Assembly (NCBI GenBank): GCA_963693095.2 | Contig: OY843768.1 | Span: forward strand, 160,001 to 224,000 | Length of the DNA: 64,000 nt | Source: Cenarchaeum sp. | GTDB taxonomy: Archaea; Thermoproteota; Nitrososphaeria; Nitrososphaerales; Nitrosopumilaceae | Direction: 5' to 3' | Shown: positions 7,512 through 55,575 of the stretch, in pieces | Layout: every line of letters begins with the position of its first letter | Numbering within the stretch: the stretch's first letter is position 1 | Position numbers and translations under genes: made by a program | Notes under the pieces: generated by a model | The model's database searches: none | What the model was told of the DNA's origin: nothing | The model's input: only the letters and a program-made list of their open reading frames with translations

Positions 7512-7797
7512 TTGTGGGCAGGCCTCCTGCGCCTTGTTATAAAGGCATACGGGGCGCGTGGCCTGCGGCCGTGCGCCATCCTCGAGCGCGAACCGCATGC
7601 CATGGACGGCATGACGGCCAGTCGCCGTACAGGGGCGGATCTTGACCAACTGGTTTTATAGGGACTGCTGGCTCGTTTGGGGCGATGAGCGGGGGTTATG
7701 GGGAGGTCGTTTGGCCTTCCGATCATGTGGATTTGGGTCATTTTGGGGCAAAAAACCGGCCAAGAATTATAAAGTACTTGTATGGTAGGGTGTGGTA

Positions 7798-8355: not shown

Positions 8356-9637
8356 AGACTTTGCATTCAAGTCGATTCGTGATCCGATTTATGGTTATAT
8401 TGGTGTGTCTGAAACTGAATATAATCTGATAAACACCAAAGTTTTTCGACGACTTCACCACATTAAGCAGCTGTCACATTCATACCTAGTGTATCCTTCA
8501 GCAACACATACGAGATATGAGCATTCACTAGGAACTATGCACATGGCCAGCAAGATGTATGACAGAGTTGAATTCGACAATTCGTACAAAAATAAAAATT
8601 ATGAAGAATACAAGGAGTTTGTTCGAATCGCTGCATTGCTCCATGATATTGGCCATGGTCCATTTTCACACACATATGAATCGGTTCTTTCACACATAAA
8701 TCCCGACATGTCCCAAATACATGAAGAGATCGGCATGGAGTTAATTAAAAATGATGGAGAGATCAATGATCACCTTGGGAAAACCAAACATGAGATCGCC
8801 CACATTCTGGAGGGGACAGGGCGCCCGAATCGAAAATACCCACTATTGTCATCAATCGTTTCAGGCAACCTTGACGCAGACAAGCTTGACTATTTCGCAC
8901 GAGATTCATATCACTTAGGTGTCAAATATGGGGTGGTAGACACTGATCGAATACTGCACGTCCTTCGAAAGGATCGCACCGGAAAGCATATTGGCGTCCA
9001 TCTGAAGGGTAATCACGTCCTAAACAGCTACCGAATGGCGAGATATCTGATCGCGACTCAAATCTACTCCCATCACACACGTCTTGCCGCTGACCAGATG
9101 TTTATTGCGGCCTCCAAGATCGCCTTTGATGACGAACACGTGCTTGACAGAGATGATTTCACATTTGGTTCAAAATCTTTTCTACAATGCCACACAAACC
9201 TTGATGATTCGTCATTTGTGCACATGATTATGTCACATGATAATGCCAACGTATCTAAGTTAATACTTGCTAACATTCAGCAGAGACGCCTGCTCAAACC
9301 TTGCCTCACATTGCCGTCGAAAACCCTCAAAGATGGCACGGTAAAAGACCAGATCCTTGACACTAAAACAATTCTTGATGATGCTTCTACGCAGATCAGA
9401 AAAAGCCTCCATCTTGCCCCACACGAGCTCATAGTCTACAAATCCGACATTCCCATAAAGCTGTTCAACAAGTCTGATATAATGATCCTTGATGATGAGG
9501 GAAAAGAACCCGATACTGCTCCAATATCCCCGATTCAGGCTGACTTGGGAATTCTCAACTATTACGTCTTTGGCATAGCCAAGAAACGTTCGCAAATTCG
9601 AGAAAAATTTGTTAAAATGGTGCCATTTTCCCAATGA
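8345..9637 (+). CDS. HD-domain dNTP triphosphohydrolase (SAMHD1/YwfO-like)
   Basis: IRDPIYG, RL..IKQL, HTRYEHSLG, LLHDIGHGPFSH, DADKLDY; markedly AT-rich. Confidence 0.88.
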   Translation: MPTRDFAFKSIRDPIYGYIGVSETEYNLINTKVFRRLHHIKQLSHSYLVYPSATHTRYEHSLGTMHMASKMYDRVEFDNSYKNKNYEEYKEFVRIAALLHDIGHGPFSHTYESVLSHINPDMSQIHEEIGMELIKNDGEINDHLGKTKHEIAHILEGTGRPNRKYPLLSSIVSGNLDADKLDYFARDSYHLGVKYGVVDTDRILHVLRKDRTGKHIGVHLKGNHVLNSYRMARYLIATQIYSHHTRLAADQMFIAASKIAFDDEHVLDRDDFTFGSKSFLQCHTNLDDSSFVHMIMSHDNANVSKLILANIQQRRLLKPCLTLPSKTLKDGTVKDQILDTKTILDDASTQIRKSLHLAPHELIVYKSDIPIKLFNKSDIMILDDEGKEPDTAPISPIQADLGILNYYVFGIAKKRSQIREKFVKMVPFSQ

Positions 9638-9798
9638 TCAGGTACTTCAGACGTTGCATTTTGTGACCTTGTGACAACAGGAACATAAACTGGAGTATTC
9701 CTAGCTTCGCTTGCCATATCATTTTTCTACGTACGTCGCGCATACAGCCCTGCCTGTTGTTCGTGAGCTGCAAGTCAATAACTTGCTTGGTTCATACG

Positions 9799-11049
9799 TT
9801 AAATCTCGTCCTTGCCGACATACTTGCGCAGTGGGGCAGGCACCGATATGCCCGAGTCTGTCCGGCAGTTCTCGACGATTGCGACAAGAACGCGCGTCGT
9901 GGCAACGAGCGTCGAGTTTAGCGTGTGGACATATTGCGTGTCCTCGTTGGTCTTGTCCCTAAAGCGCATCTTTAGCCGGCGCGCCTGGTAGTCGAGGCAG
10001 TTGGAGCACGAGACTGCCTCGCGGTACGCGCCCTGGCCGGCCATCCACGCCTCGATATCGTACGTCTTGGCCGAGACCTTGCCCATGTCGCCGCTTGAGA
10101 GCAGGACAGTGCGGTGCGGCAGGCCGAGCTCGCGGTAAAACTCCTCGGCGACGCCGAGCATCCGCTCGTGCTCGGCCCACGACTCCTCTGGCCTCGCAAA
10201 CGCAAACTGCTCGACCTTGTCGAACTGGTGCACGCGAAATATTCCCTTTTGGTCGCGCCCGTGCGCGCCGGCCTCCTTCCTAAAGCACGCGCTCACGCCG
10301 GCGTACCTGATGGGCAGCGATGCGCCCTCGAGTATCTCATCACGGTGCATCGCCGCCATTGCGTGCTCAGACGTGCCGATCATGCACAGGTCCTGGCCCT
10401 CTATGGCGTATATCGAGTCCTCAAAGTCCTCGGCAATGACTGCGCCCTCCATCGAGTCGCGCTTTATCATGTACGGCGGCTGGATTGCAGTATAGCCGTG
10501 CGAGGACGCAAAGTCGATGGCAAAGGAGACTAGCGCGTGGTTTAGGAGGACCATGTCGCCCTTTAGATAGTAAAACCTGGCGCCAGACACCTTGGCGGCC
10601 CTCTCAATGTCAACGAGGCCCATCTTTTCCATTATCGCAGCATGGTCGCCCTCTGCGCGCCGTGGCTCGCCCCACGTTCGCACGACGACATTGGCCGAGT
10701 CGTCCGGCCCGTCAGGCACGGACTCGTGAACCATGTTGGGCAGCGTCCTTGCAAGGCCCGCATACTTTTCATGCGCCTGCCGCTGCGCGGCCTCTAGTGT
10801 CTCTAGCCTTTCTGAGACGCCGCGCATCTCCTCGATCGGCTTTGCCGCATCGCCACCGCGTTTTTTTTCTGCGGCGACGGCGCGCCCGAGCTCGTTGCGG
10901 CGACGGCGCAGCTCGTCGGCCTCTGATGTTGCCTTGCGCCATGCGCCATCGGCGGCAACTAGCGCATCAAGATCATACTCGACGCTGCGCCTCCTTAGCA
11001 TGTCTCGCACGTCATCGGGCCGTTCGCGCACGATCCTGGGGTCTATCAT
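9799..11049 (-). CDS. serS: Serine--tRNA ligase
   Basis: GTSEH, FRKEAGAHG, RVHQFDKVE, SCSNCLDYQ, HTLNST. Confidence 0.97.
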   Translation of the reverse strand: MIDPRIVRERPDDVRDMLRRRSVEYDLDALVAADGAWRKATSEADELRRRRNELGRAVAAEKKRGGDAAKPIEEMRGVSERLETLEAAQRQAHEKYAGLARTLPNMVHESVPDGPDDSANVVVRTWGEPRRAEGDHAAIMEKMGLVDIERAAKVSGARFYYLKGDMVLLNHALVSFAIDFASSHGYTAIQPPYMIKRDSMEGAVIAEDFEDSIYAIEGQDLCMIGTSEHAMAAMHRDEILEGASLPIRYAGVSACFRKEAGAHGRDQKGIFRVHQFDKVEQFAFARPEESWAEHERMLGVAEEFYRELGLPHRTVLLSSGDMGKVSAKTYDIEAWMAGQGAYREAVSCSNCLDYQARRLKMRFRDKTNEDTQYVHTLNSTLVATTRVLVAIVENCRTDSGISVPAPLRKYVGKDEI

Positions 11050-24691: not shown

Positions 24692-26053
24692 TCACCTGAG
24701 TAGCGCGTCCATCTCGGCGCTCGTTGCAATCCCGCCGGCGACTGCAAGCTCCCTGATCGTCTTGCCTGTTGCAAGTGACTCCTTGAAGAGGGCCGCGGCC
24801 CTCTGGTAGCCTATCTTTGGCGCGAGGAGCGTGACTATGACGGGGCTGCCCTCTATGCGCCCGCGCATCTTGGCCTTGTCAGCACCTAGGCCGTCGATGA
24901 GGTTTGCTGCAAACTTTGGCCCAAAGCCGGCGAGCATGTCTAGTGAGTCAAGCGTGCGGTCGATCATGACGGGAAGCATGACGTTGAGCTCAAACTGGCC
25001 CGCAGACGCCGCTGCGGCGACTGCGGCATCGTTGCCAGATATTGCGATGCAGACCATGTTCATGCACTCGGCGAGTGACGGGTTTACCTTTCCGGGCATT
25101 ATCGACGAGCCCGCATGGACCGCCGGTATCGAGAGCTCTGCAATTCCGGCGACAGGGCCTGACGCCATGAGCCTAATGTCATTTGACACCCTGCCTAGCT
25201 CGACGGCGAGGCCGCGCAGCGCGCCGGAGAGTGACGCGATGGCCTGCCTGCTCTGGAGGCCATACTGCATGTCTGGCTCGGGGCGCAGTTTTAGCCGCGA
25301 CACGCGCGCAAGCTCGGCGACTGCAGCACGCCTGTAGCCGCGCGGAGTGTTTGCGCCAGTTCCTACTGCCGTTCCGCCAAGTGCTACGGCCTCTAGCGGC
25401 CTGGCAGCGGCCGCTATAGAGTCGCGCGCCGACTTTATCGCAGTCGCGTACGCGCCAAACTCGGCGCCAAGCGTGACGGGAAGCGCGTCCATTAGGTGCG
25501 TGCGCCCGAGCTTTTTGTGCGAGGAGAATGCCCTTGACTTTTTTCGCAGCGAGGAGACTATGCGGTCTATGGCCGGAAGCGTGGCCTTTGTGGCGCCGAG
25601 TGCGGCCACGTGCATTGCTGTGGGAAACGTGTCGTTGCTTGACTGTGACATGTTGACATGGTCGTTTGGGTGGAGGTGCCCGTACTCGCCGCGCCTCTTG
25701 CCGAGCTTTTCGAGGGCGACGTTTGCGATGACCTCGTTTGTGTTCATGTTGAGCGCCGTGCCGGCCCCCGAGTTTATCGCGTCGACTGCAAAGTCCCCCA
25801 TGTGCTCCCCGCCGAGTATGGCGTCACACGCCCTGGTTATCGCGCGACCCGTGGACTTTGGAAGGGCGCCGACGCGCATGTTGGCGACAGCCGCTGACCT
25901 CTTTGTCATTACAAACGCCCTGATGAGGCCGTCATGCGACCTCCTTCCAGTGACCGTGTACTGGGCGATCGCCCTGGCCGTGAATGGCCCATAGTATGCC
26001 GAGTATGGCACCTTTACGTCGCCTAGCGAGTCCGTGTCGGTTCGCGTCTTCAT
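24692..26053 (-). CDS. fumC: Class II fumarate hydratase / aspartase family
   Basis: SQSSNDTFPT, GRTHLMDA, GSSIMPGKVNP signature. Confidence 0.88.
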   Translation of the reverse strand: MKTRTDTDSLGDVKVPYSAYYGPFTARAIAQYTVTGRRSHDGLIRAFVMTKRSAAVANMRVGALPKSTGRAITRACDAILGGEHMGDFAVDAINSGAGTALNMNTNEVIANVALEKLGKRRGEYGHLHPNDHVNMSQSSNDTFPTAMHVAALGATKATLPAIDRIVSSLRKKSRAFSSHKKLGRTHLMDALPVTLGAEFGAYATAIKSARDSIAAAARPLEAVALGGTAVGTGANTPRGYRRAAVAELARVSRLKLRPEPDMQYGLQSRQAIASLSGALRGLAVELGRVSNDIRLMASGPVAGIAELSIPAVHAGSSIMPGKVNPSLAECMNMVCIAISGNDAAVAAAASAGQFELNVMLPVMIDRTLDSLDMLAGFGPKFAANLIDGLGADKAKMRGRIEGSPVIVTLLAPKIGYQRAAALFKESLATGKTIRELAVAGGIATSAEMDALLR

Positions 26054-26103
26054 GCAGCCGCGTCGCTGCGCGTCCCGTTAATCACTCTTTGCGGCCCGTC
26101 TGC

Positions 26104-26214
26104 GTATGAGGTCAGCACCCTCGCCTGTTCATGCCTGGGCAGACGCCGCAGTGGCAAGTCGATATGCCGGATCACGCCCATTTGGTCAAATGGGCAGAGG
26201 TGCTGACCTCATAC
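26104..26214. mobile_element. 111-bp MITE-like element with perfect 16-bp terminal inverted repeats and internal palindrome
   Basis: GTATGAGGTCAGCACC (26104-26119) / GGTGCTGACCTCATAC (26199-26214); GCCCATTTGGTCAAATGGGC at 26176-26195. Confidence 0.8.
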
Positions 26215-26220
26215 TGGTAG

Positions 26221-27543
26221 CTAGAGCATTGCCGGAACCTTGAGCCGCTCGAGCGCATTGTGCGCCTTTATGCGATATAGCGCAGCGTCGCGCTCGGCCT
26301 CCACAAAGTCAAGGCGCCTGACCATGTCTGGCAGGTCGGGTATGAGCGCAGACCCCTCGCACTTTTCCTGGTAGTGATTTGCGTTGACCCGAACCCATTC
26401 GGAGGCGACCGAGGCGAGGAAGAGGAGTCCGTCGTATCCAAGCGCTGACTCAAGTGCCGCAGAGAATGACTCGCGGTTCGCATTTGCGCTCCACCGAACT
26501 GCCATGTCGCGCAGGCGCGATATCTCGCCTGCGTGGCTTGTGAGATCCCTGGTAATCGCATCGTCAGGAAACGATGCTCCACTGGCGTCGCGCATTCTGC
26601 CATGTAGGTCAAAAAGTATGTGGAGCTCTATGACCATCTGCTTGACACAGTTGAGGATCTTGTGGCGCTCTAGTCGGTTCCACAGTGGCGAGAGCGTGTT
26701 GCCCATCGACTGCACCTCGTTTTGCAGCCTGTGCCGACCAAGTGCGTCATACAGCGCACACCTGATCCTGATCAGCTCGGAGGCGGTGTGGATTGCGCCA
26801 TCTCCCATCTGGTCATAGTCAGCACAGTGGGTTGGGTTCTGCGCCACATACGCGTCTATCCTGCTGGAGAGACTTGCCCAGTCAGACAGCCCGATTGGCG
26901 CCTCGGAGGGAATCTTGGAGAGTGCGGCGCAGAATGACTCTGGCATTGCGTGCAATAGCCCATCAAGCAGCGCCAGGGCCATGGTTGCGCACGCAAAGTA
27001 CGGCCGTTCTGCACCGTGGCTGGCCACCATGGCGCTGTCTGGTGACTGGCCTACCTCGACCATTCCGTTGCCCGGACTGGCTATCCTGTCACGCATGTCA
27101 GGCATCCCCAAGACAAGTTTGCGCACCTCGTCAGATAGCGGCTGCAGGTGTGAGAGTTCGACCTTTGCGTCCTTAAGCTGTGAGAGCAGCCCGTCATACA
27201 TGTCGACGAACCGGTGGAGGTCGAGCGCAAGGTACTGCAGGCTAGACTTTATCAGGCAATGATCCTCATCAGACGTTCCCGGCACGAGGCCTGCCGCCTC
27301 GCGCAGCGCAAAGTCCAGCCCAATGCGAAACTCAAACATGTCAACGAGCGTCCGGTCAAGCTTGCCCTGTCTCCCGCTGCCTGACGTGGGGGCCATGTAT
27401 GCGGCGTGGGTACGGTGTATGGGCGAGGCGCACTCGGCCCCGCAATCGGCACTGCACTCGCCTGGCGCCTCATCAAGCCAATAGTCCCACATTAGCGATT
27501 GCCCCCGTGTGAGGGCGTGACATCCGTCATGCCACTGCCGCAC
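26221..27543 (-). CDS. Hypothetical all-helical protein with internal two-domain duplication (possible HEPN-like); start uncertain
   Basis: 440-aa ORF; both halves show E..I...L..A / L.LH.F.D / RD patterns. Confidence 0.55.
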   Translation of the reverse strand: MRQWHDGCHALTRGQSLMWDYWLDEAPGECSADCGAECASPIHRTHAAYMAPTSGSGRQGKLDRTLVDMFEFRIGLDFALREAAGLVPGTSDEDHCLIKSSLQYLALDLHRFVDMYDGLLSQLKDAKVELSHLQPLSDEVRKLVLGMPDMRDRIASPGNGMVEVGQSPDSAMVASHGAERPYFACATMALALLDGLLHAMPESFCAALSKIPSEAPIGLSDWASLSSRIDAYVAQNPTHCADYDQMGDGAIHTASELIRIRCALYDALGRHRLQNEVQSMGNTLSPLWNRLERHKILNCVKQMVIELHILFDLHGRMRDASGASFPDDAITRDLTSHAGEISRLRDMAVRWSANANRESFSAALESALGYDGLLFLASVASEWVRVNANHYQEKCEGSALIPDLPDMVRRLDFVEAERDAALYRIKAHNALERLKVPAML

Positions 27544-27812
27544 ATGGTCACCCCGGTGCGATGATCCCTGCAGCCCATACCGCGCAAATCTCCAACATTA
27601 TGTTATATGTTTTGCTGCATGGACTAGCCTCGCGAATTCGCGTGTCGGCCGCATTGTGGCGGCGTTGGAAGCGTGTGCCAGCCTCAACACGCCATGCTGC
27701 TGCGATCATGCGGCGATGGCGGGCATTTGGCAAGCAGGCGGCTCGGATCCTTGCGATCAAAAAGCTTTAACTAGAAGCGGATCGAAGTGTGGGCAGTGAG
27801 GTCATACGACGC

Positions 27813-28325
27813 ATGAGCGACAAAGGTCAACCAGATCACGGGAGCACGTCTGTGGACAGGCATGAAAGTGAGGACGTGTGCCGTACACTTGAAGCGACCA
27901 TGGGCATAATCGTTCGTGTTGGACGCATAGATTATGATGTTGCAGAGTATCTTGCATGCACACAAGCAAGATCAGCCGAAAATATGCGTGGCGAAAAACG
28001 TCGGAAAATCCTGAGGCATGTTTATAGTATGAACGCGGTGATACGATACAACAATGTCAGAGGAGACCTGAATCGTAAAGACATTGACAACTCACTGAAA
28101 ATGGTGAGGCGAGTACGAAACGGCCTGGCTCATTGTGTAGAACAGATAACCCCAGACGGAGTAACGGGCAATTATGAGGTTCCGATAAGCTATAGCGCAA
28201 AATATCTGAGGCAGGTATTGAAGACTGCCGATTTATGCTCAAAAGACATAACAAAATCATTTCTGAAAAAACAACAATATGTCAAATGGAAGGAGATCGG
28301 CAAGTCAGAGACAAAAGTTGCATAG
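27813..28325 (+). CDS. Putative HEPN-domain ribonuclease
   Basis: RNGLAH (Rx4H) in a helical 170-aa AT-rich ORF. Confidence 0.55.
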   Translation: MSDKGQPDHGSTSVDRHESEDVCRTLEATMGIIVRVGRIDYDVAEYLACTQARSAENMRGEKRRKILRHVYSMNAVIRYNNVRGDLNRKDIDNSLKMVRRVRNGLAHCVEQITPDGVTGNYEVPISYSAKYLRQVLKTADLCSKDITKSFLKKQQYVKWKEIGKSETKVA

Positions 28326-28493
28326 GGCGGGGATTTTGACCCCCCCATGATATCTTTATTGGCGTTTTGTCTAGAACTATCTCGACAGGACCTGTATTTC
28401 ACATTGAAATGATGGCGAAGGACTCGAATGGGCGACCACTACTTTCCGTGCAAAACAAGAGACGGGGCTTTGTCCACAATGATCCCTCAAAAG

Positions 28494-28777
28494 GTATGAG
28501 GCCAGCACCACGTGTGATCATTTGACCAAATGGATGCACCTTGTCCATCTACTTGCCACTGCGACGTCTGTCTAGGCACGAACGAGCGGTGGTGTTGACC
28601 AGGCCCGGCGCCCTAGAGAGATCCTCGATGGCCTCGATCCTGCCGTTGAGCTGCGCCACCATGCTGTCCGGGTTCCGGTCCTGTTGCCCCGTCACGCCCC
28701 TGGGGCAGGCGTCGCGGCAGATGGATCGGCAGGATCACGCCTATTTGGTCAAATGGGCAGGGGTGCTGACATCATAC
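28494..28777. mobile_element. Composite MITE-like element of the same family as 26104-26214
   Basis: Ends GTATGAGGCCAGCACC / GGTGCTGACATCATAC; 28494-28600 is an inverted diverged copy of the 111-bp element; two palindrome copies (about 28519 and 28738). Confidence 0.75.
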
Positions 28778-28825
28778 CCCAAAACCCATGATCCCCTTAT
28801 ATATGGGCCAAATGGGGGCGTGGCA

Positions 28826-30208
28826 ATGAACACAAGACAACTACGCACGCTACTCCCCGTGGCCGCAGTCGCGGCAGTGGGGATGACGCTGCTAGGAAGC
28901 TCCTACACGCAGACACAGATATCGGGCATGACGCTAGACACGTCAGCACTAGACATTGACGCCATACAGCAGATCCACGACATGGGCGGCCTCAGGCTAG
29001 TCATGCCGGAGGCATTCGCACAGATGGACTGTGGCGACCTTGACACATCAGGGCGCGACATAGTCAACCTGGACCTAATCGGCGAGAGCGTAATGCTGCC
29101 GATCATGGGTCACACCGCAGAGAACCCAAAGACATTCCATGCAATGACCTTTAACGGCCAGGTGCCAGCACCTACGCTGAGGGTCACGCAGGGCGATGTT
29201 GTGAGGATGACGCTGACGATTCCGGACGGTGAACTAACGCCGCACGGCAACGACATGCACGCCTCACAGATATCGGCAACAAACTTCGATGCGGTAAACC
29301 CAGGCGAGTCAGCAACGTACTGCTACATAGCACACGTTCCAGGCGTCTTCAAGTACCACTGCTCGGGCGTTAACGTCGCGGCTATGGACCAGCACGTCCT
29401 CTCGGGCATGTATGGCATAGCCATCGTCGACCCGCTCGACGGCTACAAGAGGCTCATGGTCGAAAAGACGGCAGTAGAGAACGGAGAGGTCGTAAAGGAC
29501 AGGATGTTCTATCCGCCTGACGCACTCGAGTTCCAGCTGCAGTACAACCAGCTCTACCTGACTGACTCTGGCACATATGACAGCACGGCAATGTTCAAGC
29601 ACCAAAACACGCAGACAGTCGTCAACGGAATGCAGTTCGGATACGTCCCCAACGAGACGCACAACACCCTAGTCAAAGATGATCCCAAAAAGAACATCTT
29701 TGTGGCACAGCCATGGAACTCCGAAGACCTCGCACAGTACCAGTCGCAGCTCCTCTTCGTGGAGACCGACCAGCACGTGAGGTTCTTTGTTGAGAACCAG
29801 GGCAACGAGCCGGTGTTCTTCCACATTGTCGGCGAGATCCTAGACAGGGTCACGCAGGGCAACAGAGTCCAGTCCGGGCCTACCGAGACGTGGCTCCTTG
29901 GAGGATCGCAGAACATGATCGTCGACGTCGTCTTTGACGAACCGGGCGTATACGTCGCAGTCAACCATGACTATGCGGCGATATTCTCTGGTGCGGCGAC
30001 GATCATAGTGGCTGGAGACCCCTTTGGCCTGGTCGAAAAGCACGACCTGCCAGATGCAGTGTCCAAGTCATACGCGTATGCGCTAGGAAACCCGAGTGAC
30101 GCAGTCCCTCCGATGGGAGATCAGAGCATGGAGCACCCAATGGTGAACCTGCACGGCCTCTACACCGACGAGCGGGCTGCAGAGCTCAGCACACAGCTCG
30201 GCCTATAG
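28826..30208 (+). CDS. nirK: Copper-containing nitrite reductase (archaeal NirK)
   Basis: HGNDMH, YHCSG..M..H.LSGM, FHIVG and VNHD copper ligands; N-terminal hydrophobic leader; TATA at about 28797. Confidence 0.92.
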   Translation: MNTRQLRTLLPVAAVAAVGMTLLGSSYTQTQISGMTLDTSALDIDAIQQIHDMGGLRLVMPEAFAQMDCGDLDTSGRDIVNLDLIGESVMLPIMGHTAENPKTFHAMTFNGQVPAPTLRVTQGDVVRMTLTIPDGELTPHGNDMHASQISATNFDAVNPGESATYCYIAHVPGVFKYHCSGVNVAAMDQHVLSGMYGIAIVDPLDGYKRLMVEKTAVENGEVVKDRMFYPPDALEFQLQYNQLYLTDSGTYDSTAMFKHQNTQTVVNGMQFGYVPNETHNTLVKDDPKKNIFVAQPWNSEDLAQYQSQLLFVETDQHVRFFVENQGNEPVFFHIVGEILDRVTQGNRVQSGPTETWLLGGSQNMIVDVVFDEPGVYVAVNHDYAAIFSGAATIIVAGDPFGLVEKHDLPDAVSKSYAYALGNPSDAVPPMGDQSMEHPMVNLHGLYTDERAAELSTQLGL

Positions 30209-30278
30209 CCAACAGCACACTATCTTCATTTTTCATCTCCCAAATCGTTATAACCCGTGCGCACGCCCCTCGGCCACG

Positions 30279-31208
30279 TTGGCCGCAAACTCTGCCCTGA
30301 TATGCGACAAGGTTGACCCCATACTCAACAAGATACTCTCCGATAACGGGATTGAGGTGACCTACGAGCCAGAGATCACGCCTGAGGCCCTCCTCGAGTC
30401 AGTCGCAGACTGCACGATAATCGTCGTGCGCAGCCGCACAAAGGTGACCTCTGAGGTCATTGCGCGCGCTACGTCATGTAAGATAGTCGCGCGTGTCGGA
30501 GTCGGCCTAGACAACATCGACACTGAGGCGTGCAAGGCGCGCGAGATACGCGTCCTCAACGCAGTCGAGGGCGCGATGAACGCCGTCGCCGAGCTCGTCC
30601 TGGCTCTCATGCTCTCGATGGCACGCCAGATACCACGCGCCGATGCTGCCCTGCGCGAGGGGCGCTGGCTCAAAAAGGAGCTCGTGGGCAGCGAGCTGCG
30701 CGGCAAGTACCTCGGGATCGTCGGCATGGGCAACATTGGCAAGCGCCTCGCGCGCCTCGCGCGCTCGCTAAACATGAACATAATCGGCTATGACGTCGTG
30801 CCCATCGACGCCGAGCTCTCGCGCGAAGTTGGGCTGATGAAGGCCGACCTTGACACGCTGTTCCAGAGCTCCGACTATGTCTCGCTCCACGTGCCCCTCC
30901 TCGACTCGACGAAAAACCTCGTTGATGCGCGACGCCTTGCGATGATGAAGCCGACTGCACGCCTCATCAACACGTCGCGTGGGGGAATAGTTGACGAGGA
31001 TGCGCTATATGACGCAGTCTCATCAGGCAAGCTTGCCGGCGCGGCACTTGACGTCTTTGATGTCGAGCCGGCCACGTCTAGCCGGCTCAGGGAGCTCGAG
31101 CAGGTTGTCCTCACGCCGCACATGGGCGCGCAGACGGCCGAGGCCCAGGGACTTGCGGCCAACGTCATTGGCGAAAAGATAGTGCAGGCAGTGCGCGGCG
31201 TCATCTAG
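30279..31208 (+). CDS. serA: D-3-phosphoglycerate dehydrogenase-like 2-hydroxyacid dehydrogenase
   Basis: RVGVGLDNID, GMGNIG, NTSRGG, LDVF..EP, TPHMGAQT. Confidence 0.85.
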   Translation: MAANSALICDKVDPILNKILSDNGIEVTYEPEITPEALLESVADCTIIVVRSRTKVTSEVIARATSCKIVARVGVGLDNIDTEACKAREIRVLNAVEGAMNAVAELVLALMLSMARQIPRADAALREGRWLKKELVGSELRGKYLGIVGMGNIGKRLARLARSLNMNIIGYDVVPIDAELSREVGLMKADLDTLFQSSDYVSLHVPLLDSTKNLVDARRLAMMKPTARLINTSRGGIVDEDALYDAVSSGKLAGAALDVFDVEPATSSRLRELEQVVLTPHMGAQTAEAQGLAANVIGEKIVQAVRGVI

Positions 31209-31974
31209 CGCGGCGCGCAATTCGCGCAGCAGCGGCCCCGCCGCCGATTCCATTGTCAATGTTCACCGTTGCGAGTCCCGGCGAGCAGCTCTGCAGCATG
31301 GATGCCAGCGCGGCGGCCCCGCGGCCGGCATGGCCGTACCCGACTGACGTCGGGATGCCGATGACGGGTATGTCGACTAGCGAGGAGACTACTGTGGCGA
31401 GGGCTCCCTCCATTCCGGCCACGACAATGATCGCCCCAACGTCACCTTTGGCCATTTGCTCCACTGCCGGAAACACCCTTCCGAGGGCCGCAATCCCTAC
31501 GTCGTACTCGGTTGTGCACTTGCAGTCCATGGCCTCGCACATGAGGCGGGCCTCCTCGGCGACGCCAATGTCTGACGTGCCGGCGGCCATTATGCCGACG
31601 CGCCCGAGCACGCGCCGCCTGCGCCCCTTTTTTGCCAGCACGGCAGTCGAGCGGCGCGCAAGCGTGACGCTTGCGCCCAGTGACCTGAGGTGGGCTGCCA
31701 GCGCACCCCTCTCCCTTGCGCGAACCCTTGACACCAGCGCGACGCCCGAGCTCTTGAGGAGCCTTGATGCTATGGCCCTAGTCTCGGCTGCAGTCTTTGT
31801 CGAGGCGAGGACTACCTCGGGTGCGCCGGTTCGATCGCGCCTTGATGTGTCAACGCGCGCAAACCCGCCTACGCGCTCTATGGAGTTGAGCGAGATTAGC
31901 GTTCGTGCGCGCTGCGCGCCGATGCGCCCTGACTGCAGCGACTCTAGTATCTCGTCGAGCTCCATCGCGCGCAT
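31201..31974 (-). CDS. larB: Nickel-pincer cofactor biosynthesis protein LarB
   Basis: AGTSD..VAEEA, DVG, AGMEGAL, PTSVGYG, NIDNG. Confidence 0.9.
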   Translation of the reverse strand: MRAMELDEILESLQSGRIGAQRARTLISLNSIERVGGFARVDTSRRDRTGAPEVVLASTKTAAETRAIASRLLKSSGVALVSRVRARERGALAAHLRSLGASVTLARRSTAVLAKKGRRRRVLGRVGIMAAGTSDIGVAEEARLMCEAMDCKCTTEYDVGIAALGRVFPAVEQMAKGDVGAIIVVAGMEGALATVVSSLVDIPVIGIPTSVGYGHAGRGAAALASMLQSCSPGLATVNIDNGIGGGAAAARIARRAR

Positions 31975-31996
31975 TCTGAGCTGTGCGGATAAATAC

Positions 31997-32905
31997 CTAG
32001 ATGCCGGCTATGGCCGCCTTTACGCTAGCTGCTGCAGCATCAAGGACACCGCGCTCGGCCTCGTCCAGGTCGAGCTCGACTATGCTCTCTACGCCGTTGC
32101 GCCCTATGATGGCCGGCACGCCAAGCGCAATTCCCGAATGACCATACTCGCCCTCGAGGGGAGTCGAGACCGGTATGAGCTGCTTTTTGTCGCGCACGAT
32201 CGACTCGATGAGCGCGGCTATGGCGTTTCCGGGGGCGTGAACAGTCGCGCCCTTTAGGGATATGACCTTGGCGGCGACCTTTTTTGTCGACTCTACGATC
32301 TCGTCTAGCTTTTCGCGCGGGAGCATGTCAGTCAGCGGTATTCCGGAGACTGAGGAATGGCGGACGAGGGGCAGCATGTTCACGCCGTGCTCGCCGATGA
32401 CTAGCCCCCTTATCGAGTCGCGCGACTTGCCAGTTGCCCCGTGTATGAACTCCCTAAAGCGCGACAGGTCAAGCATCCCGCCCATGCCCACGATGCGGCT
32501 CCTCTCAAAGCCTGACTCCTTGTGGGCCACGTGAACCATGGGATCAAGCGGGTTTGTCACCGGTATTATGATCGAGTCTGGCGCGTGCCTTTTCGTCTCG
32601 GCCACGACGCTTGTGACGACCTTTGAGTTTATCTTTAGGAGGTCCATGCGCGTCATGCCGGGCTTGCGACCTGCGCCGGCCACGACGACCACAATGTCCG
32701 AACCGGCCATCTCGGCATAGTCGTTGGAGCCGCGGACATTGACGTCGATTCCCAGCTCGGCTAGCGCGTGGCTCGTGTCCATCGCCTCGCCCTGCGGGAG
32801 GCCTTCTGCAATGTCGAGGAGGAGTATCTCGGTGTCTAGCCTGCGCAGCGCGCTAAAGAGGGCAGCGTCGCCGCCGACCTTGCCAGAGCCCACAATCGTG
32901 ATCAT
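31997..32905 (-). CDS. mdh: Malate dehydrogenase (LDH-like)
   Basis: [33 protein letters not shown]. Confidence 0.92.
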
Positions 32906-33012
32906 CTGTGCGCAGGGGCTCTGTGCTGCGTAATTAAACCTAGTGTGGTCTTTGAGTGTGGGGCCGGCACCCATGTCAGCCTATGCCCGAATAGGCGTAG
33001 CGGCCAAGTAAA

Positions 33013-33050
33013 CCGGCAGAATCAACGCCCATTTGACCAAATGGACATTG
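33013..33050. repeat. Partial copy of the palindromic element
   Basis: CCGGCAGAATCAACGCCCATTTGACCAAATGGACA; near reverse complement of 35036-35071. Confidence 0.75.
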
Positions 33051-33051
33051 C

Positions 33052-33651
33052 CTAGAGTGAGAATTCTCGATATTCTTGTGCCTGCGCGCTCTGTGTTCCG
33101 AGCAGAGACCCCGCAATGTCATCATACACCCTGGGCACGCGCTCTTGGTTGATTATGAACCAGCCGCGCGCCTCCTCGATCATCTCCTCGCGCGTGAGCG
33201 TCCTGCCCCCTGCGCGCATCTTGTCCTCAATATAGCACAGCGTCGAGGCGATCTCGAGCCACTCGACGTCATCGATGCGCTCGCGCGCGAGCTCAACAAA
33301 CTCTTCTCTGCGGCTCCATTCCTGCGCGGGCTCTGAGTGCAGGTCCTTGAGCCCCCAGATGTCAACCTCGAACCCAAACGCGTGGGGGCTGGTCATGCTC
33401 CAGTCATAGACGTACCTCTCCAGGTTGGGGCAGTCGAGCCTATGCTTTGCAAAGTAGACGAGTATGTTCAGGGACAGGCGCGTGGCGTTGCTCTTCCAGC
33501 TCTGATACATGTCGCACGGGATGACGCCGGCGTCACAGAGGACATGAAGTATGGGAACCGGGGATCCAGGGACGATCATGCCCCCGTTGGGGAGCGACTC
33601 GGTCGGCACCATCCTGTACCCCTCGACATTGACGTATCCCCGATCCTGCAT
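33052..33651 (-). CDS. Degenerate YwgA/Panacea-like protein, copy 1
   Basis: LNILVYF...YVYDW...PHA...D and WLEIASTLCYI, echoing LQKLVY / GPYS / LEL.AT. Confidence 0.55.
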   Translation of the reverse strand: MQDRGYVNVEGYRMVPTESLPNGGMIVPGSPVPILHVLCDAGVIPCDMYQSWKSNATRLSLNILVYFAKHRLDCPNLERYVYDWSMTSPHAFGFEVDIWGLKDLHSEPAQEWSRREEFVELARERIDDVEWLEIASTLCYIEDKMRAGGRTLTREEMIEEARGWFIINQERVPRVYDDIAGSLLGTQSAQAQEYREFSL

Positions 33652-33805
33652 CGGACAGGAAACGGCCCCTGGAGCTTATAATCCTATCCTGAGATACTGC
33701 TTTAACCACGAATGTGCACGGGCAGTCGTCTCCCAAAGACTGACTACCGGATGGTGGAGTATTCGGGATTGGCCGCCATCTCTGCCACATGGCACAATAT
33801 CTGGG

Positions 33806-34396
33806 CTATGCGCGCGCTAGATCCTCGCGCACGTTCTTGCCCCGTGTCTCTCTAATGTACTTGGATATTTTCATTGCAGACCCTTGAATCCACTGGATAT
33901 CGGAGACGTGGACGGTGTCTTTTTGCAGGTTGCTTATCATCTGATCGACTATACGGAGCGGCTTTGTCTTGAAGCTGCGCTCCACCCTGGCGCTGACCAC
34001 TGCACTCTTTATGCTATAGACGTGCATTATGAACATCACCCTGTGGTGATCTGGGACAGTTGCCCTTTGTGGTTCTATAGACGACTTGAAGAGTGCCTCT
34101 ATGGTACGCTGGCACATCTTGTGCAGGGTTGATAGTGACTGGAGCACAGAGTCAGTCTCCTCGCCATACCGAAACCTCTCTGCCTGTTGGGTTATCGTGT
34201 AGCTGAACACGCCTAGCACGTATGCATAGTATCCGCATATGACGGCCACCCCTAGCGCCATCAGGGACGTTAGCAGCGAAATGGCGCCATAGACGCTTCC
34301 TGTTGCGATCAGCGTGCTCCAATAGATCGCCACTAGCCCGCCGCCTATGACTCCGGCGGGAAGCATTCCCAGGGTGAGAATTCTTGATATTCTCAT
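33806..34396 (-). CDS. Hypothetical membrane protein (two N-terminal TM helices plus helical soluble domain)
   Basis: ATGA overlap with the stop of the 34393-34968 gene. Confidence 0.65.
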   Translation of the reverse strand: MRISRILTLGMLPAGVIGGGLVAIYWSTLIATGSVYGAISLLTSLMALGVAVICGYYAYVLGVFSYTITQQAERFRYGEETDSVLQSLSTLHKMCQRTIEALFKSSIEPQRATVPDHHRVMFIMHVYSIKSAVVSARVERSFKTKPLRIVDQMISNLQKDTVHVSDIQWIQGSAMKISKYIRETRGKNVREDLARA

Positions 34397-34968
34397 GGCT
34401 GTGTACCCCCAGTTCCGAGCAGCGACCCCACAATGTCGTCGTACACCTTGGGCACGCGCTCTTGGTTGATTATGAACCAGTTGTGCGCCTCCTCGATCAT
34501 CTCCTCGCGCGTGAGCGTCCTGGACTCTGCGCGCATCTTGTCTTCAATGTAGCACAGCGTCGAGGCGATCTCGAGCCACTCGACGTCATCGATGCGCTCG
34601 CGCGCAAGCTTGACAAACTCTTCGCTCCTGTCCCACTCTTGCGCGGGCTCTGTGTGCAGGTCCCTGAGCCCCCAGATGTCAACCTCGAACCCAAACGCGT
34701 GCGGGCTAGTCATGCCCCAGTCATAGACATACCTCTCCAGGTTGGGGCAGCCAAGCCTGTGCTTTGCAAAGTAGACGAGTATGTTCAGGGCCAGGGACAC
34801 GGCGTTGCTCTTCCAGCTCTGATACATGTCGCACGGGATGACGCCGGCGTCACAGAGGACGTGGAGTATGGGAACCGGGGATCCAGGGACGATCACGCCC
34901 CCGTTGGGGATCGACTCAGTAGGCACCATCCGGTATCCCTCGGCATTGACGTATCCCTGATCCTGCAT
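34393..34968 (-). CDS. Degenerate YwgA/Panacea-like protein, copy 2
   Basis: Near-identical paralog of 33052-33651. Confidence 0.55.
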   Translation of the reverse strand: MQDQGYVNAEGYRMVPTESIPNGGVIVPGSPVPILHVLCDAGVIPCDMYQSWKSNAVSLALNILVYFAKHRLGCPNLERYVYDWGMTSPHAFGFEVDIWGLRDLHTEPAQEWDRSEEFVKLARERIDDVEWLEIASTLCYIEDKMRAESRTLTREEMIEEAHNWFIINQERVPKVYDDIVGSLLGTGGTQP

Positions 34969-35017
34969 CGGACAGGAAGCGACCCCTGGAGCTTATAATC
35001 CTACCCTGAGATCCTGC

Positions 35018-35071
35018 GTATGGGAGCCGACACCACTGCCCATTCGGTCAAATGGGCATTGATCCTGCCGG
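35018..35071. repeat. Partial copy of the palindromic element with a degenerate terminal repeat
   Basis: GTATGGGAGCCGACACC followed by GCCCATTCGGTCAAATGGGC and ATTGATCCTGCCGG. Confidence 0.75.
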
Positions 35072-35137
35072 TGCGCTGGCATTATCATCGGCCACGCCCA
35101 CAACAATTTATATCATTTTTGTCGCGCACGGCCAGCC

Positions 35138-36352
35138 ATGGCGCTAGTCATAGACGCACAGGTTGCCGGAATATCCGGAGACATGCTCCTGTGCTCGCTG
35201 GTTCACATGGGGGCCGACCCCGCAAGGATAGAGTCTGCGCTCATGCGTGCGGCCTCTGGCCTCCAGGGCGAGGAGGTCAAGGGCATCTCCTTTGAGCGCG
35301 TGAGGCGCCATGGGCTCGAGGCTACTGCGCTGCGCGTTGACTCGTCTGGCGCGCCACACTCGCGCGCCGCCTCGGAGCTCGCAGCGCACATTGCGTCCTC
35401 GGCCGCATCATGCAAGATATCAGGGCAGGCCGCCTCGTTTGCCTCGCAGAGCGTCCAGACGCTCATCGCCGCCGAGTCGGCAGTTCACGGCGTTGGCGCA
35501 TCGTCGGTTCACCTCCACGAGGCTGCCGGAGTCGACACGCTCATTGACATACTCGGCACGGCAATTGCACTCGATGACCTGGGCCTCCTCTCGGAGCGCA
35601 TAACATGCACCCCCGTGGCAGTCGGCGGGGGACTCTTAGAGTTCTCACACGGCGTCGCATCCAACCCCGCCGGCGCGATACTCGAGATATTCCGCCGACG
35701 CGGCATTGAGATCCGCGGCGGGCCGGCCGGCGTGGAGCTCACGACACCGACTGGCGCTAGCATGCTCGTCAACCTCGCCTCCTCGTGCGAGCGGTTCTAC
35801 CCGCCACTCTCGCCGACTGGCATCGGATATGGCGCCGGCAGCGCCGAGCACGACGCGTTTGCAAACGTTCTCAAGGTCGTGCGCGGGACCGAGTCTGCCG
35901 CGCTTGCAGCCGACACGGTCCGCGTGCTTGAGACCAACCTCGATGACGTCACCGGCGAGCTCCTCGGCCACGTCATCGACGAGCTCATGCGCAAGGGTGC
36001 GCATGACGTGACTGTCTCGCCGGCGGTCACAAAAAAGGGGCGGCCCGCAAGCTTGCTGACTGCAATATGCGACGCGCGCTCGTATGATGACGTGCTGCGC
36101 GCGCTAGTCGAGGAGACCGGAACGCTCGGCGTGCGCGTGCGCGACTCGAACAGGGTTGTCGCAAGGAGGGACTCGGCGACTGTCAGGGTCACCGTGGAGG
36201 GCAGGCAGTTCGATGTGCGCCACAAGGCAGCGCGCGGTGGCATTCCAAAGGTGGAGCACGACGACGTGGCCCGCGTGGCCTCTGAGCTCGGCATGCCGCT
36301 GAGGAGAGCACGCCGCCTCCTCGATGATGCCGTGTCAGGGGGTCGGCAATGA
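35138..36352 (+). CDS. larC: Nickel insertion protein LarC
   Basis: GISGDM, AES.VHG..VHLHE, ELTTPTG, ETNLDD..GE, TGTLGVR. Confidence 0.92.
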   Translation: MALVIDAQVAGISGDMLLCSLVHMGADPARIESALMRAASGLQGEEVKGISFERVRRHGLEATALRVDSSGAPHSRAASELAAHIASSAASCKISGQAASFASQSVQTLIAAESAVHGVGASSVHLHEAAGVDTLIDILGTAIALDDLGLLSERITCTPVAVGGGLLEFSHGVASNPAGAILEIFRRRGIEIRGGPAGVELTTPTGASMLVNLASSCERFYPPLSPTGIGYGAGSAEHDAFANVLKVVRGTESAALAADTVRVLETNLDDVTGELLGHVIDELMRKGAHDVTVSPAVTKKGRPASLLTAICDARSYDDVLRALVEETGTLGVRVRDSNRVVARRDSATVRVTVEGRQFDVRHKAARGGIPKVEHDDVARVASELGMPLRRARRLLDDAVSGGRQ

Positions 36353-37146
36353 CGCGCATCGCCGCGCTGCGATCGTGGTTTGAGGGCCATGACTGCCCGC
36401 TAGTGGCGCTCTCTGGCGGCGTCGACAGCGCGCTAGTCGCCCACGCGGCCCACTCGGTGACGCCCCGCGCAATCGCGTTCACGGCCGACTATCAGGCGCT
36501 GCCTCGCGAGGATCTCGAGGCGGCGCGCAAGACGTGCGACGAGATTGGCATCGAGCACATGGTCGTGCAGTACGACGAGCTCCTCAACGAGTCCTATGCG
36601 ACAAACACGCCTGACCGCTGCTTTCACTGCCGCACAGAGCTCGGCGAGCGCCTAGTCGAGGCCGCGCGGCGCGTCACTGCCGATGTCATAGTCGACGGGA
36701 CGCATCTCGATGACATGGGCGACTATCGTCCCGGCCTTGAGGCCATGCGCGCTGCCGGCGTGCGCAGCCCGCTCGCCGAGTCTGGACTCACAAAGGACGA
36801 CGTGCGCGAGTGCGCGCGCGCCGTCGGGCTCTCGGCGTGCGACAGGCCTGCCAACTCGTGCCTCGCCTCGCGGATACCGTGGGGCCGGCGCGTCACTGCC
36901 GAGAGGCTCGCGCGCATAGAGCTTGCCGAGAGGATTGTGCGCCAGGCCACGGGCATTGGCATCGTGCGCGTTCGCGACACGGGTGATGAGACTGCGCGCA
37001 TCGAGGTTCCGCACGACAGCATCGGTGAGCTGCGGCGCTCGATGGACTCGCAGATATCGCCGCGCCTGCGCACACTGGGGTACCTCGAGGTGAGCGTGAG
37101 CGAGCGCGGATACTCGCAGGGCGGGGCAAACGCGGGGGCGCAATGA
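36349..37146 (+). CDS. larE: ATP-dependent sulfur transferase LarE
   Basis: PP-loop SGGVDS, RCFHCR, DYRPG, SCLASRIP. Confidence 0.92.
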   Translation: MTRIAALRSWFEGHDCPLVALSGGVDSALVAHAAHSVTPRAIAFTADYQALPREDLEAARKTCDEIGIEHMVVQYDELLNESYATNTPDRCFHCRTELGERLVEAARRVTADVIVDGTHLDDMGDYRPGLEAMRAAGVRSPLAESGLTKDDVRECARAVGLSACDRPANSCLASRIPWGRRVTAERLARIELAERIVRQATGIGIVRVRDTGDETARIEVPHDSIGELRRSMDSQISPRLRTLGYLEVSVSERGYSQGGANAGAQ

Positions 37147-44341: not shown

Positions 44342-44948
44342 CGACGCGCGCGCGTGGGACACGTTTGTATAAAAGTGCTTGAGTTGCGTGTTGGGAATAT
44401 GCCCTGCATTTGACCACGTGTGTTGCGGGCCTGCCAAGTCTGCGGTGTGATGGAAACTGGCTCCATTTTTGTGGATCACGTCCGCCTTTCCGAATCCGCA
44501 GGACGCTCGCTAGTGCGGGCATGTTGATGAACTCGACGTTCTTGCCGGGTTGCCCGTTAGGGACCACGGGTGTGGCACTAGGCGTCCTGTTGTCGAACGC
44601 TATGCAGCCAATGTGCTGTGTGTGTGTGTACGCGGTGCGGACTAGCGCGGTGTGTCGTGTGCTTGATGGATGCAGATTCAACGAGGTGCATGTTCGCCTT
44701 CTCTGCGTGACGTGATCGGGCAACGGGTTTATATTGATGTGGGAATTAACAATTATATATTGACGCGCATCCCCGCCTGTTGATGACTGACAGCGAGACA
44801 AAGACGACAATCTTTAGCAATCACAATCATGATAACTTCATACCGGTGGCTACTGCAGAACCACAGCTATCTGGCACCACCAAAACTAACATACCTGTTC
44901 ATCCCTCCATTACACAATCTAGCCAGCCTCGTGGTAAGGTGATACGTA

Positions 44949-45419
44949 TTGCGGGAGATTCCGAGTAAACCTGACAGCTCTGTGTCGCTCGGCTTTGAGG
45001 TGCTCAAAGAACCGTGGAACAAATGCCAACTATCCGACGGTTCCACACTTCGAATACGCAATGTGCTTAACACCGTCCGTCGTTATATGGAAAGAAACGT
45101 TCCAACATATGCGCCGTCTGCGGCATGCTCAATTAACATAATGTGCGCACCATCGTTAAGAGGCGTCCCGACTGACCATATTCCAGATCACGACACTCAG
45201 CTACGCTCCATAGAGCAAGCCGAGGTGGTATTTAATACGCTGTCTAATGACAACAATGACTATATCTTAAGCGATGACACTCGAATAAAGCTTCATCTTA
45301 ACTTGATAGAAATATCAAGAACAACACTGTATGACACTTTCGGCGATCGAGTTTACTTTATCAACCATTCCACGTTTCAAAGTATTAAATTGGCACCACA
45401 ATACCAGACCCAACAATAA
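44949..45419 (+). CDS. AT-rich hypothetical protein with two tandem copies of a small domain
   Basis: FEVLKEPWNKCQLSDGSTLRI versus FNTLSNDNNDYILSDDTRIKL; start uncertain. Confidence 0.6.
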   Translation: MREIPSKPDSSVSLGFEVLKEPWNKCQLSDGSTLRIRNVLNTVRRYMERNVPTYAPSAACSINIMCAPSLRGVPTDHIPDHDTQLRSIEQAEVVFNTLSNDNNDYILSDDTRIKLHLNLIEISRTTLYDTFGDRVYFINHSTFQSIKLAPQYQTQQ

Positions 45420-45698
45420 TCAATTCTATCCACTCGTGTGTTATTCTGTAAAGGCGCACAAATCAACAGTCATGCTTTGACGCTTATCGCTCCTAGTTTT
45501 GTGGATATCTGTGGATGAAATGATCACCTCTGCCCTGTCAGTCATATGCGCAGACTGTATACGCGCAAAATCCCCTGCGTTGCCCATGTTCTCATTTGAG
45601 TGATCACGCATATGCAGTTGCGTCACACAATCCAGGAACGTTTGCAAAACTTGACTAGGCAAACTTTGGCCCGTGTGGGCTTTGGAATCCCCGCACGC

Positions 45699-53746: not shown

Positions 53747-53799
53747 GCAGTCATCCAAGATGTGCTTTCCGGACCACAAAATCCGCGGCAGGTCGGCGC

Positions 53800-54171: not shown

Positions 54172-54193
54172 TGTGCGGCTATTGATTTGTTTA

Positions 54194-55179: not shown

Positions 55180-55360
55180 GGCGCCTTTGTGCCGGGGTGT
55201 GACATTAATACTTTGTCCGATATGTGGGCTTTTGCCGTGCGTAAATGGCAGGCTGGACGGGAACTGCCTGGTGGTGACACTGGTGTGCCCAGGCGGGCTC
55301 GCGATGGTAGGCAGGATGTTGCAGCGCGCGTTTGGGGAACCAGTGCCGGTGAGCCCTGTC

Positions 55361-55518: not shown

Positions 55519-55575
55519 TGGGATGACTCTCTAGGGCACGATGCCTTATTTGGGGCGCGCCAGAGGCCGCAGGCC

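Follow-up and report, generated by a model that had tools for sequence, protein, structure and literature searches.

Palindromic modules around two small gene cassettes in a Cenarchaeum genome are best explained as ends of an IS66-family insertion sequence and of its miniature derivatives

In a stretch of 64,000 nucleotides from Cenarchaeum sp. (assembly GCA_963693095.2, contig OY843768.1, positions 160,001 to 224,000; hereafter the window), a reading of the sequence alone had drawn attention to a palindromic module of about 50 bp that occurs five times and brackets two small gene cassettes, and had proposed that the modules belong either to a family of MITEs (miniature inverted-repeat transposable elements) forming composite transposons or to a recombination-site system that captures accessory genes in the manner of pdif modules or integron cassettes. 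The best explanation of our data as a whole is that the modules are, very probably, the transposase-proximal ends of an IS66-family insertion sequence (IS) with a single open reading frame (ORF) and of its MITE derivatives of about 111 bp. The IS66 identity of the element, the 8-bp target-site duplications (TSDs) of the IS and of some MITEs, the insertion polymorphism and one composite unit are observed directly. A speculative cassette-capture system is in this way replaced by a concrete element, an apparently active IS66-family IS with its MITEs, in an ammonia-oxidising archaeon of the sponge-symbiont type.

The sequence-only reading had suggested looking for an autonomous element with the same ends. 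When the genome (2.0 Mb in two contigs, 60% GC) was searched with the complete 111-bp element of the window (E1, Table 1) as query, four intact IS copies of 1515-1516 bp were found on the same contig (C1:45805-47320, C1:92339-93854, C1:397612-399127 and C1:843670-845184). All of them lie outside the window, so that the earlier statement that no transposase is present holds for the window but not for the genome. Two of the copies are identical to each other, and a third differs at 35 positions. Perfect 8-bp TSDs flank all four, as well as both IS copies of G004, the closest complete relative (1,644,826 bp; about 76% of the present genome aligns with it, at a mean identity of 91%). At both ends of the four copies the terminal inverted repeat (TIR) is GTATGAGGTCAGCACC, conserved at 16/16 nt and identical to the TIRs of E1.

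Each IS copy contains one long frame of 472-487 aa, which encodes a DDE_Tnp_IS66 transposase. This protein matched PF03050 with E values from 1e-38 to 2e-39 (133.8 bits, cut-off 23.1) and the NCBIfam model transpos_IS66 (NF033517) with 229.3 bits (cut-off 180), its zf-IS66-like region scored slightly below the cut-off of PF13005 (25.2 versus 27.3 bits), and its N-terminus is a coiled coil. The accessory ORFs tnpA and tnpB of canonical IS66 elements appear to be absent from the IS; the one frame nearly fills the 1516 bp, and the other long frames overlap it. Only one of the two TIRs has the palindrome beside it, namely that at the start of the transposase gene. Judged by these sequence features, the autonomous partner is an IS66-family insertion sequence of the single-ORF kind, which we take to be the subgroup named ISBst12-like; the ends of IS66-family elements typically begin with GTAA. 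The GC content of the IS is 72%, versus 60% for the genome, and the MITEs are near the composition of the genome. The present IS may be a recent arrival that is related to an older element from which the MITEs were founded.

The 111-bp MITE is built from about 24 nt of the far end of the IS and 87 nt of its palindrome-bearing end, and with the right end of the IS the MITE bodies share only 77-80% identity. The earlier proposal of a non-autonomous MITE family is supported, as these elements are short and non-coding, have TIRs identical to those of an autonomous IS in the same genome and include polymorphic copies. A profile made from 12 full copies (113 positions; nhmmer), which together with BLAST also served to assign the elements of the window, detected 53 non-overlapping loci in this genome, 4 of which are IS ends, leaving 49 MITE loci; 43 loci were detected in G004, two of them at the ends of full IS copies. 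The element was found only in this genome and in G004 among the 61 genomes of the taxonomic family that were searched, two other congeners in that set being incomplete (84% and 91%). Genome-wide, 39 of 48 palindrome matches lie inside loci of the element family, and the palindrome is kept with at most 2 mismatches in 39 of the 49 loci that span it. The MITE at 1688898-1689009 is flanked by the perfect 8-bp TSD ACTGATTT and has an empty site in G004, where the flanks abut with a 7-nt overlap, and perfect 8-bp TSDs also flank four MITEs of G004. Many MITE copies are orthologous in both genomes and are therefore old. Two regions of scrambled synteny, 1.63-1.69 Mb and 1.91-1.97 Mb, hold clusters of copies.

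Within the window, CCATTTGNNCAAATGG was matched five times with at most 2 mismatches (at 26178, 28518, 28741, 33029 and 35040), versus a mean of 0.17 matches and a maximum of 1 in 100 shuffles. Inspection of the sequence bore out the coordinates and orientations reported earlier for the five modules; they are not free-standing sites of about 50 bp, each being instead the transposase-proximal end of an IS66-family element. E1 has perfect 16-nt TIRs and matches the profile over positions 1-113 of 113 (E = 6e-30), and its part 26128-26214 aligns with the right end of the full IS at 77% identity. E2 (profile positions 7-113, E = 2e-18) forms with E1 a 54-nt inverted repeat that is 81% complementary, and it is fused to E3, which aligns with the four IS copies at their right ends over 178-187 nt, with 78% identity. 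The resulting element of 284 bp extends over 28494-28777, and its near-matching flanks, noticed before, agree at 6/8 positions of their 8-mers. E4 matches profile positions 3-93 of 113 (E = 2e-10), and the match of E5, at 35026-35077, covers positions 54-106 (E = 6e-4); the two form a 39-nt inverted repeat, 87% complementary, and both are kept in G004, E4 at 189434-189526 with an identical break point and E5 at 191498-191550. The Ldh_1_N match starts at residue 25 of the ORF listed at 31997-32974, and therefore the start of the malate dehydrogenase gene (mdh) is probably near 32911, with E4 upstream of the gene and not inside it.

The clear case of these elements moving cargo is found at genome positions 237239-238650, where a 328-bp deletion derivative of the IS, 971 bp with a membrane-protein ORF and a 113-bp MITE follow one another, both elements being in the same orientation. 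GGCGCCC occurs on both sides of the whole structure, with a 1-2-nt irregularity at the left, and the site is empty in G004, which has a single GGGGGCGCC followed by TGCAG. Neither of the flanking elements has a TSD of its own (agreement at 1/8 and 3/8 positions). With its TSD and its empty site, this unit is a true composite, and it is modest evidence that pairs of MITEs can carry passenger genes in archaea. The composite transposons of the sequence-only reading are thus borne out at this place and in part by the first cassette of the window, but not by the second.

The family is also linked to differences between the two genomes more generally. One flank is missing or non-collinear in G004 at 30 of the 49 MITE loci (61%), versus 70 of 400 random sites (17.5%; Fisher p = 3.5e-10), and when a five-copy tandem array was collapsed to one copy, 26 of 45 MITE loci were at such junctions. 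Among the 23 clean insertions, defined by at least 1 kb here and at most 300 bp in G004, five are bordered by a family element at a distance of no more than 30 nt, so that the family marks a share of the strain-specific DNA; the edge of the insertion is 0-8 nt from the TIR tip in four of these and 18 nt in the other. One of the five border cases (C1:1790614-1795872) is a strain-specific 5.3-kb island that ends in a MITE and carries an IS630-like DDE_3 transposase and a 1083-aa restriction-modification enzyme of the Eco57I/N6_Mtase type. Four further segments of the window are non-collinear with G004 (2659-4768, 7561-9803, 44415-45694 and 53747-55529), and in place of 7561-9803 G004 has a 2.2-kb replacement that starts with a MITE (G004 165815-165925); there is none here.

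Orientation does not follow a rule in the family. The arrangement in which inverted elements point their palindromes inward is found at both cassettes of the window, as described before, but among neighbouring copies 300-6000 bp apart we counted 10 direct pairs (4 from one tandem array), 3 with palindromes inward and 3 with palindromes outward in this genome, and 7, 2 and 2, respectively, in G004. Enrichment of the copies as inverted pairs, which had been put forward as a check, is therefore not a family rule in either genome. According to our tally of orientations, the two ends of the element are turned toward variable DNA with about the same frequency.

The first cassette (cassette 1, 26096-28777) is absent from the orthologous site of G004, in answer to the earlier suggestion that the fumC junction be compared with an empty one in a relative. 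G004 is collinear up to 26098 on the fumC side (94.5% identity) and resumes at 28778 on the multicopper-oxidase side (96%), and two more distant congeners have at this site a short spacer without the element. The right edge of the cassette is exact at the TIR tip of E3, the homology with G004 restarting at the first base after the TIR (...CTGACTG followed by CCCAAAAC in G004 and ...CATCATAC followed by CCCAAAAC in this genome), and at the left edge the homology stops 8 nt before the TIR. The outer TIRs are perfect at 26104 and have 1 mismatch at 28762-28777. As observed previously, the stop codon of the ORF at 26221-27543 (minus strand) is 6 nt from 26214. In public sequencing runs, the best of which may be the source of the assembly itself, a single contig spans both junctions free of mismatches in two runs (26026-28815; depth 669 and 40), and a joint that skips 26096-28777 was found with a depth of 561 and 111 in two of the four runs examined. 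Genotypes with and without cassette 1 co-occur, and the one that lacks it may be a G004-like genotype. Two other read joints, from 26158 to 33014 and from 26160 to 28724, are not counted as evidence for deletions between element copies, their short side being only 31-37 nt and many differing loose ends at 26104 showing that contigs of other MITE copies are present there too. No other copy of the cassette was detected in public metagenome contigs by one protein-based scan and one exact 28-nt end pattern. Absence from G004 and a right edge at the TIR tip speak for cassette 1 as a composite transposon, and the lack of a TSD and of a second copy speaks against it; it is most likely a strain-specific insertion delivered by a transposase, in which a canonical TSD would never have been made or would have been lost later.

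The second cassette (cassette 2, 33051-35019) lies between mdh and larC and is shared with G004, which has the same genes, the same truncated E4, the same E5 fragment and the same junctions, with 96% identity. The duplication that had been noted next to E5 is real (33051-33699 and 34368-35019, 91% mean column identity), and its homology is lost no more than 2 nt from the TIR start at 35020. Because G004 carries identical scars, cassette 2 is old, predates the split from the sister species and is immobile in its present form; the elements that flank it would since have been truncated by deletion, so that the cassette could no longer move. The proposal of a mobile composite is therefore given up for this cassette, which is found at the same site in G004 and has a deletion scar as a junction.

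Table 1. Elements and cargo genes at the two cassettes (window coordinates)
Feature	Position	Strand	Description
E1	26104..26214	+	Complete 111-bp MITE; TIRs at 26104-26119 and 26199-26214; subterminal palindrome GCCCATTTGGTCAAATGGGC at 26176-26195
Cargo gene 1	26221..27492	-	423-aa all-helical protein; ORF as listed runs to 27543 (440 aa); paralogs start at MWDYW
Cargo gene 2	27789..28325	+	178-aa putative HEPN-domain protein; divergent from cargo gene 1
E2	28494..28600	-	Inverted MITE copy; palindrome end toward the cargo; lacks the outer 6 nt of the other TIR
E3	28600..28777	+	Last 178 bp of a full-length IS, not a MITE; transposase-proximal end with palindrome and TIR
E4	32957..33050	+	MITE that lacks about 20 nt at the palindrome end, the palindrome-side TIR among them
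Remnant of gene B start	33051-33078		Downstream of A1
Cargo A1	33052..33651	-	199 aa, lineage-expanded family; 87% identical to A2
Cargo B	33806..34396	-	196 aa, hydrophobic N-terminal part; no significant family match
Cargo A2	34393..34968	-	191-aa paralog of A1; promoter region abuts the TIR of E5
E5	35020..35071	-	52-bp fragment of the palindrome-bearing end; degenerate TIR and palindrome; remainder of the element missing

These results suggest a mechanism in which the transposase would recognise the shared 16-bp TIRs, and probably also the adjacent palindrome that the MITEs have retained, and would move the MITEs in trans. Two elements that flank host DNA would occasionally move that DNA in trans as a composite unit, and later recombination and deletion would erase TSDs and truncate ends. 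A bolder extension of this mechanism would make the tips of IS66-type MITEs the working edges of a gene-shuffling system. Small cassettes of a defence-like kind would then be inserted between core genes, and duplicated, by the transposase working in trans on a single MITE end or on two. This extension is tentative, and we hold it to be rather doubtful; if true, these would be the first transposons of the MITE-bounded composite or one-ended kind to be documented in Thaumarchaeota. Beyond the composite unit, the biology is that of ordinary transposon decay.

Several observations weigh against the interpretation of the cassettes as cargo of the IS66-type elements. Because the MITE bodies are so diverged from the IS of today, we infer, rather than observe, their mobilisation in trans by this transposase. 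At cassette 1 there is no TSD, as the flanking 8-mers CCGTCTGC and CCCAAAAC agree at 3/8 positions, the site in G004 is not strictly empty, containing 228-232 unrelated bp between the same flanks, and no second copy of the cassette was found in the genome, which holds only diverged paralogs (at most 56% protein identity). Among 19 short elements checked in this genome, 15 have flanking 8-mers that match at no more than 3/8 positions (E1 itself at 2/8) and only one has a perfect TSD, and therefore most copies are not in an undisturbed insertion site. Three of the five border cases are one-sided, with no second end that could be recognised; degenerate second TIRs, sought at the far border of these insertions, were matched only with 4-5 mismatches, about the chance rate by our estimate. 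At the left junction of cassette 2, E4 is cut after ...GGACATTG and is followed by the 28-nt remnant of the start of gene B; this junction is therefore a deletion scar in a former tandem promoter-A-B repeat and not a transposase cut. The absence of a TSD at cassette 1 and the edges that lie at a TIR tip without a second end, including that of the duplication in cassette 2, are left unexplained by the proposed mechanism.

Some of these observations would be expected if MITEs and cassettes were coincidental neighbours, both landing in the few tolerant short intergenic spacers of a compact genome, without the cargo having been moved by MITEs. The orthologous spacers are indeed short (up to 228 bp where they were examined; in two other congeners, about 60-160 bp), which makes some adjacency of elements and insertions inevitable, and the lack of a TSD at cassette 1 and the deletion scar at cassette 2 are also in line with this account. 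In the same direction, 18 of the 23 clean insertions of this genome lack a family element at their borders, in G004 none is found within 30 nt of a border in any of the 15 clean insertions left when the IS is set aside, and of 127 collinear gaps 85 are free of family elements in both genomes. Nevertheless, the precision with which the insertion edges meet the TIR tips, the excess of MITE loci at junctions over random sites, and a TSD that at 237 kb encloses a whole two-element structure in which neither element has its own, make mere coincidence an unlikely account. Somewhat easier to accept, and possible without being probable, is that the dispersed MITE and IS copies acted as portable homology and that recombination and deletions made the junctions without TSDs, including those of both cassettes. 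The mismatched flanks of the 15 short elements, the 18 of 49 loci whose flanks map to non-collinear places in G004, the internal truncation junctions in E2/E3 and E4, and the clustering of copies in the two regions of scrambled synteny are all in agreement with such scars. However, when exchanged flanking 8-mers were sought among 113 TIR ends of the two genomes, no partner was found for the ends of cassette 1 and only two near-matches were found overall, the fumC-oxidase site of G004 contains no resident element with which a circle could recombine, and recombination between E1 and E2, which are inverted, would invert the cargo and not insert it.

The remaining explanations assign the palindrome itself a function outside transposition. 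If it were the core site of a cassette-capturing recombinase, as in pdif modules or the attC sites of integrons, its conservation in most of the loci that span it, the inward-facing palindromes at the two cassettes of the window, and the different cargo that another congener has in the mdh-larC spacer would be accounted for. This part of the earlier proposal is highly improbable and is abandoned, because the junctions are at the TIR tips and 20-25 nt removed from the palindrome, variable DNA can adjoin the element at either of its ends, direct orientation prevails among neighbouring pairs, and the other congener's cargo lacks the module by both pattern scans and a search with the 111-bp element. 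The only PF00589 (tyrosine recombinase) match genome-wide (27.4 bits, at 1834491-1835009) is about 1.6 Mb away and unlinked to any copy, and the palindrome has a 2-nt spacer, versus the 6-8 nt of Xer and integron core sites. It is just as hard to believe that the modules are a structured RNA or a regulatory repeat of the REP type, unrelated to transposition. E1 can form a long hairpin (-56.4 kcal/mol, z -5.4), which, however, follows from the TIRs themselves; moreover, there was no Rfam match at E values up to 1 over positions 25000-36500, uncompensated changes occur in variant palindromes, such as CCGTTTG..CAAATGG and CCATTCG..CAAATGG, and the same ends bound a transposase gene. The reading of the modules as ends of IS66-type elements is thus the one that we retain.

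The cargo of cassette 1 had been described as HEPN-type genes, a description that finds weak support for the 178-aa ORF and none for the 440-aa ORF, which has no family match. The 178-aa protein showed weak matches, far below the cut-offs, to a Csm6 HEPN region (E = 0.005, 15.9 bits, cut-off 150) and to PF18736 (E = 0.077, 13.2 bits, cut-off 26.6), and it has an RxVRNxLAHC motif (RNGLAH; R-N-x-L-A-H) that is kept in a 42%-identical paralog; its gene has 45% GC, versus 60% for the genome. The start of the 423-aa protein was placed by alignment with four paralogs, and six matches to it with 29-56% identity are found elsewhere in the genome. No Pfam, NCBIfam, PADLOC, Protein Atlas or PDB-fold match was obtained for this protein, and it has just 14 related clusters among 1.84 billion representatives. 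The same divergent pairing of the two genes occurs in G004 (1515861-1517984) and, within this genome, in a cluster of paralogs at 1.81 Mb, with 41-56% protein identity, and the pair is therefore, as far as such comparisons tell, a lineage-specific two-gene module of which the present copy is no recent internal duplicate. We also considered that cassette 1 could be a circular permutation of the 1.81-Mb cluster, an idea that was discarded as the HEPN-like gene there pairs divergently with the next 423-aa paralog, an arrangement shared with cassette 1 and with G004. PADLOC matched none of five cargo proteins, AlphaFold models of two of them (mean pLDDT 67 in both) gave no Foldseek match in the PDB at E up to 0.001, and sequence and profile searches of the cargo against the PDB returned only noise (E = 0.6-1.4).

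The family of the A-type proteins of cassette 2 has at least 12 other members in the genome. The A-type proteins had been called Panacea-like, a label that is not upheld, since none of eight family members matched PF13274 (DUF4065) or any other Pfam family at E values up to 1, and PDB sequence and Foldseek searches gave no match either; the resemblance of A1 and A2 to Panacea motifs is presumably no more than a lead. A paralog of cargo B with 52% identity is found beside A-family genes at genome positions 1055138-1055692. Six paralogs of the A1/A2 family stand in tandem at C1:779760-786771, with a period of about 1.19 kb and with five partial MITE fragments between them (780411, 781607, 782800, 783997 and 785462); G004 has two such fragments. 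In the congener G002, a different insert of 2.16 kb lies between mdh and larC, in which no family element was detected by pattern scans (up to 3 and 4 mismatches) or by a whole-genome search with the 111-bp element. This insert (G002 C13:10078-12241) has a frame of about 287 aa whose D...ECK motif recalls PD-(D/E)xK nucleases, and the mdh-larC spacer looks like a hot spot for variable genes. Beyond E5 and upstream of larC, G004 has an unrelated IS of 1,088 bp (G004 C1:191577-192664, corresponding to window position 35097) that has inverted ends of its own and is flanked by a direct repeat, GCATTATCGTCGGCCACGC, whose length of about 19 nt is unusual; a comparable end motif, TACTTTTTGTACAAGG, is present at genome position 1128454. 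The core genes at 30279-36352 of the window form a nickel-pincer cofactor and hydroxyacid set that consists of a D-2-hydroxyacid dehydrogenase, a LarB-like AIR carboxylase with an N-terminal extension, the malate/lactate dehydrogenase and LarC.

MITEs are known in several archaea (PMC10969869). In a 2019 survey of thaumarchaeal mobile elements, no IS-like transposons are given for Cenarchaeum symbiosum A, the one Cenarchaeum genome that it includes, and composite transposons are said to be undetected in archaea (PMC6563490). Our searches of the literature for IS66 or transposases in Cenarchaeum, for archaeal IS66 MITEs and for archaeal composites, whose coverage excludes subscription journals, found no description of the present element.

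The element resembles the IS66 family in its DDE_Tnp_IS66 domain, putative zf-IS66-like region, N-terminal coiled coil, 8-bp TSD and TIRs that start with GTA, and its short derivatives resemble IS66-derived MITEs in being built from two IS ends with identical TIRs. It differs from canonical IS66 elements in the lack of tnpA and tnpB, in the palindrome (arms of 7-9 bp, spacer of 2 nt) beside one TIR only, and in its high GC content. IS-derived MITEs and composite units flanked by MITEs or IS copies are well known in bacteria, for example as integrons or resistance genes between two MITEs in Acinetobacter. Like these, the 237-kb unit has two non-autonomous elements around passengers, has a TSD and is absent from the site in a relative; unlike them, the units described here are found in an archaeal host and carry small lineage-restricted passengers (the HEPN-like pair and the membrane-protein ORF), and cassette 1 has no TSD. 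As in composites of the Tn5/Tn10 type, the cargo lies between two copies of one element and the outer ends define the unit, but the flanking elements here encode no transposase, and the enzyme must therefore act in trans. With pdif modules and integron cassettes the system shares small accessory-gene units placed between short palindromic sites in intergenic DNA; it differs from them in having no linked recombinase, in its junctions at TIR tips, in the lack of an orientation rule, and in TSDs of fixed length, which mark a DDE transposase.

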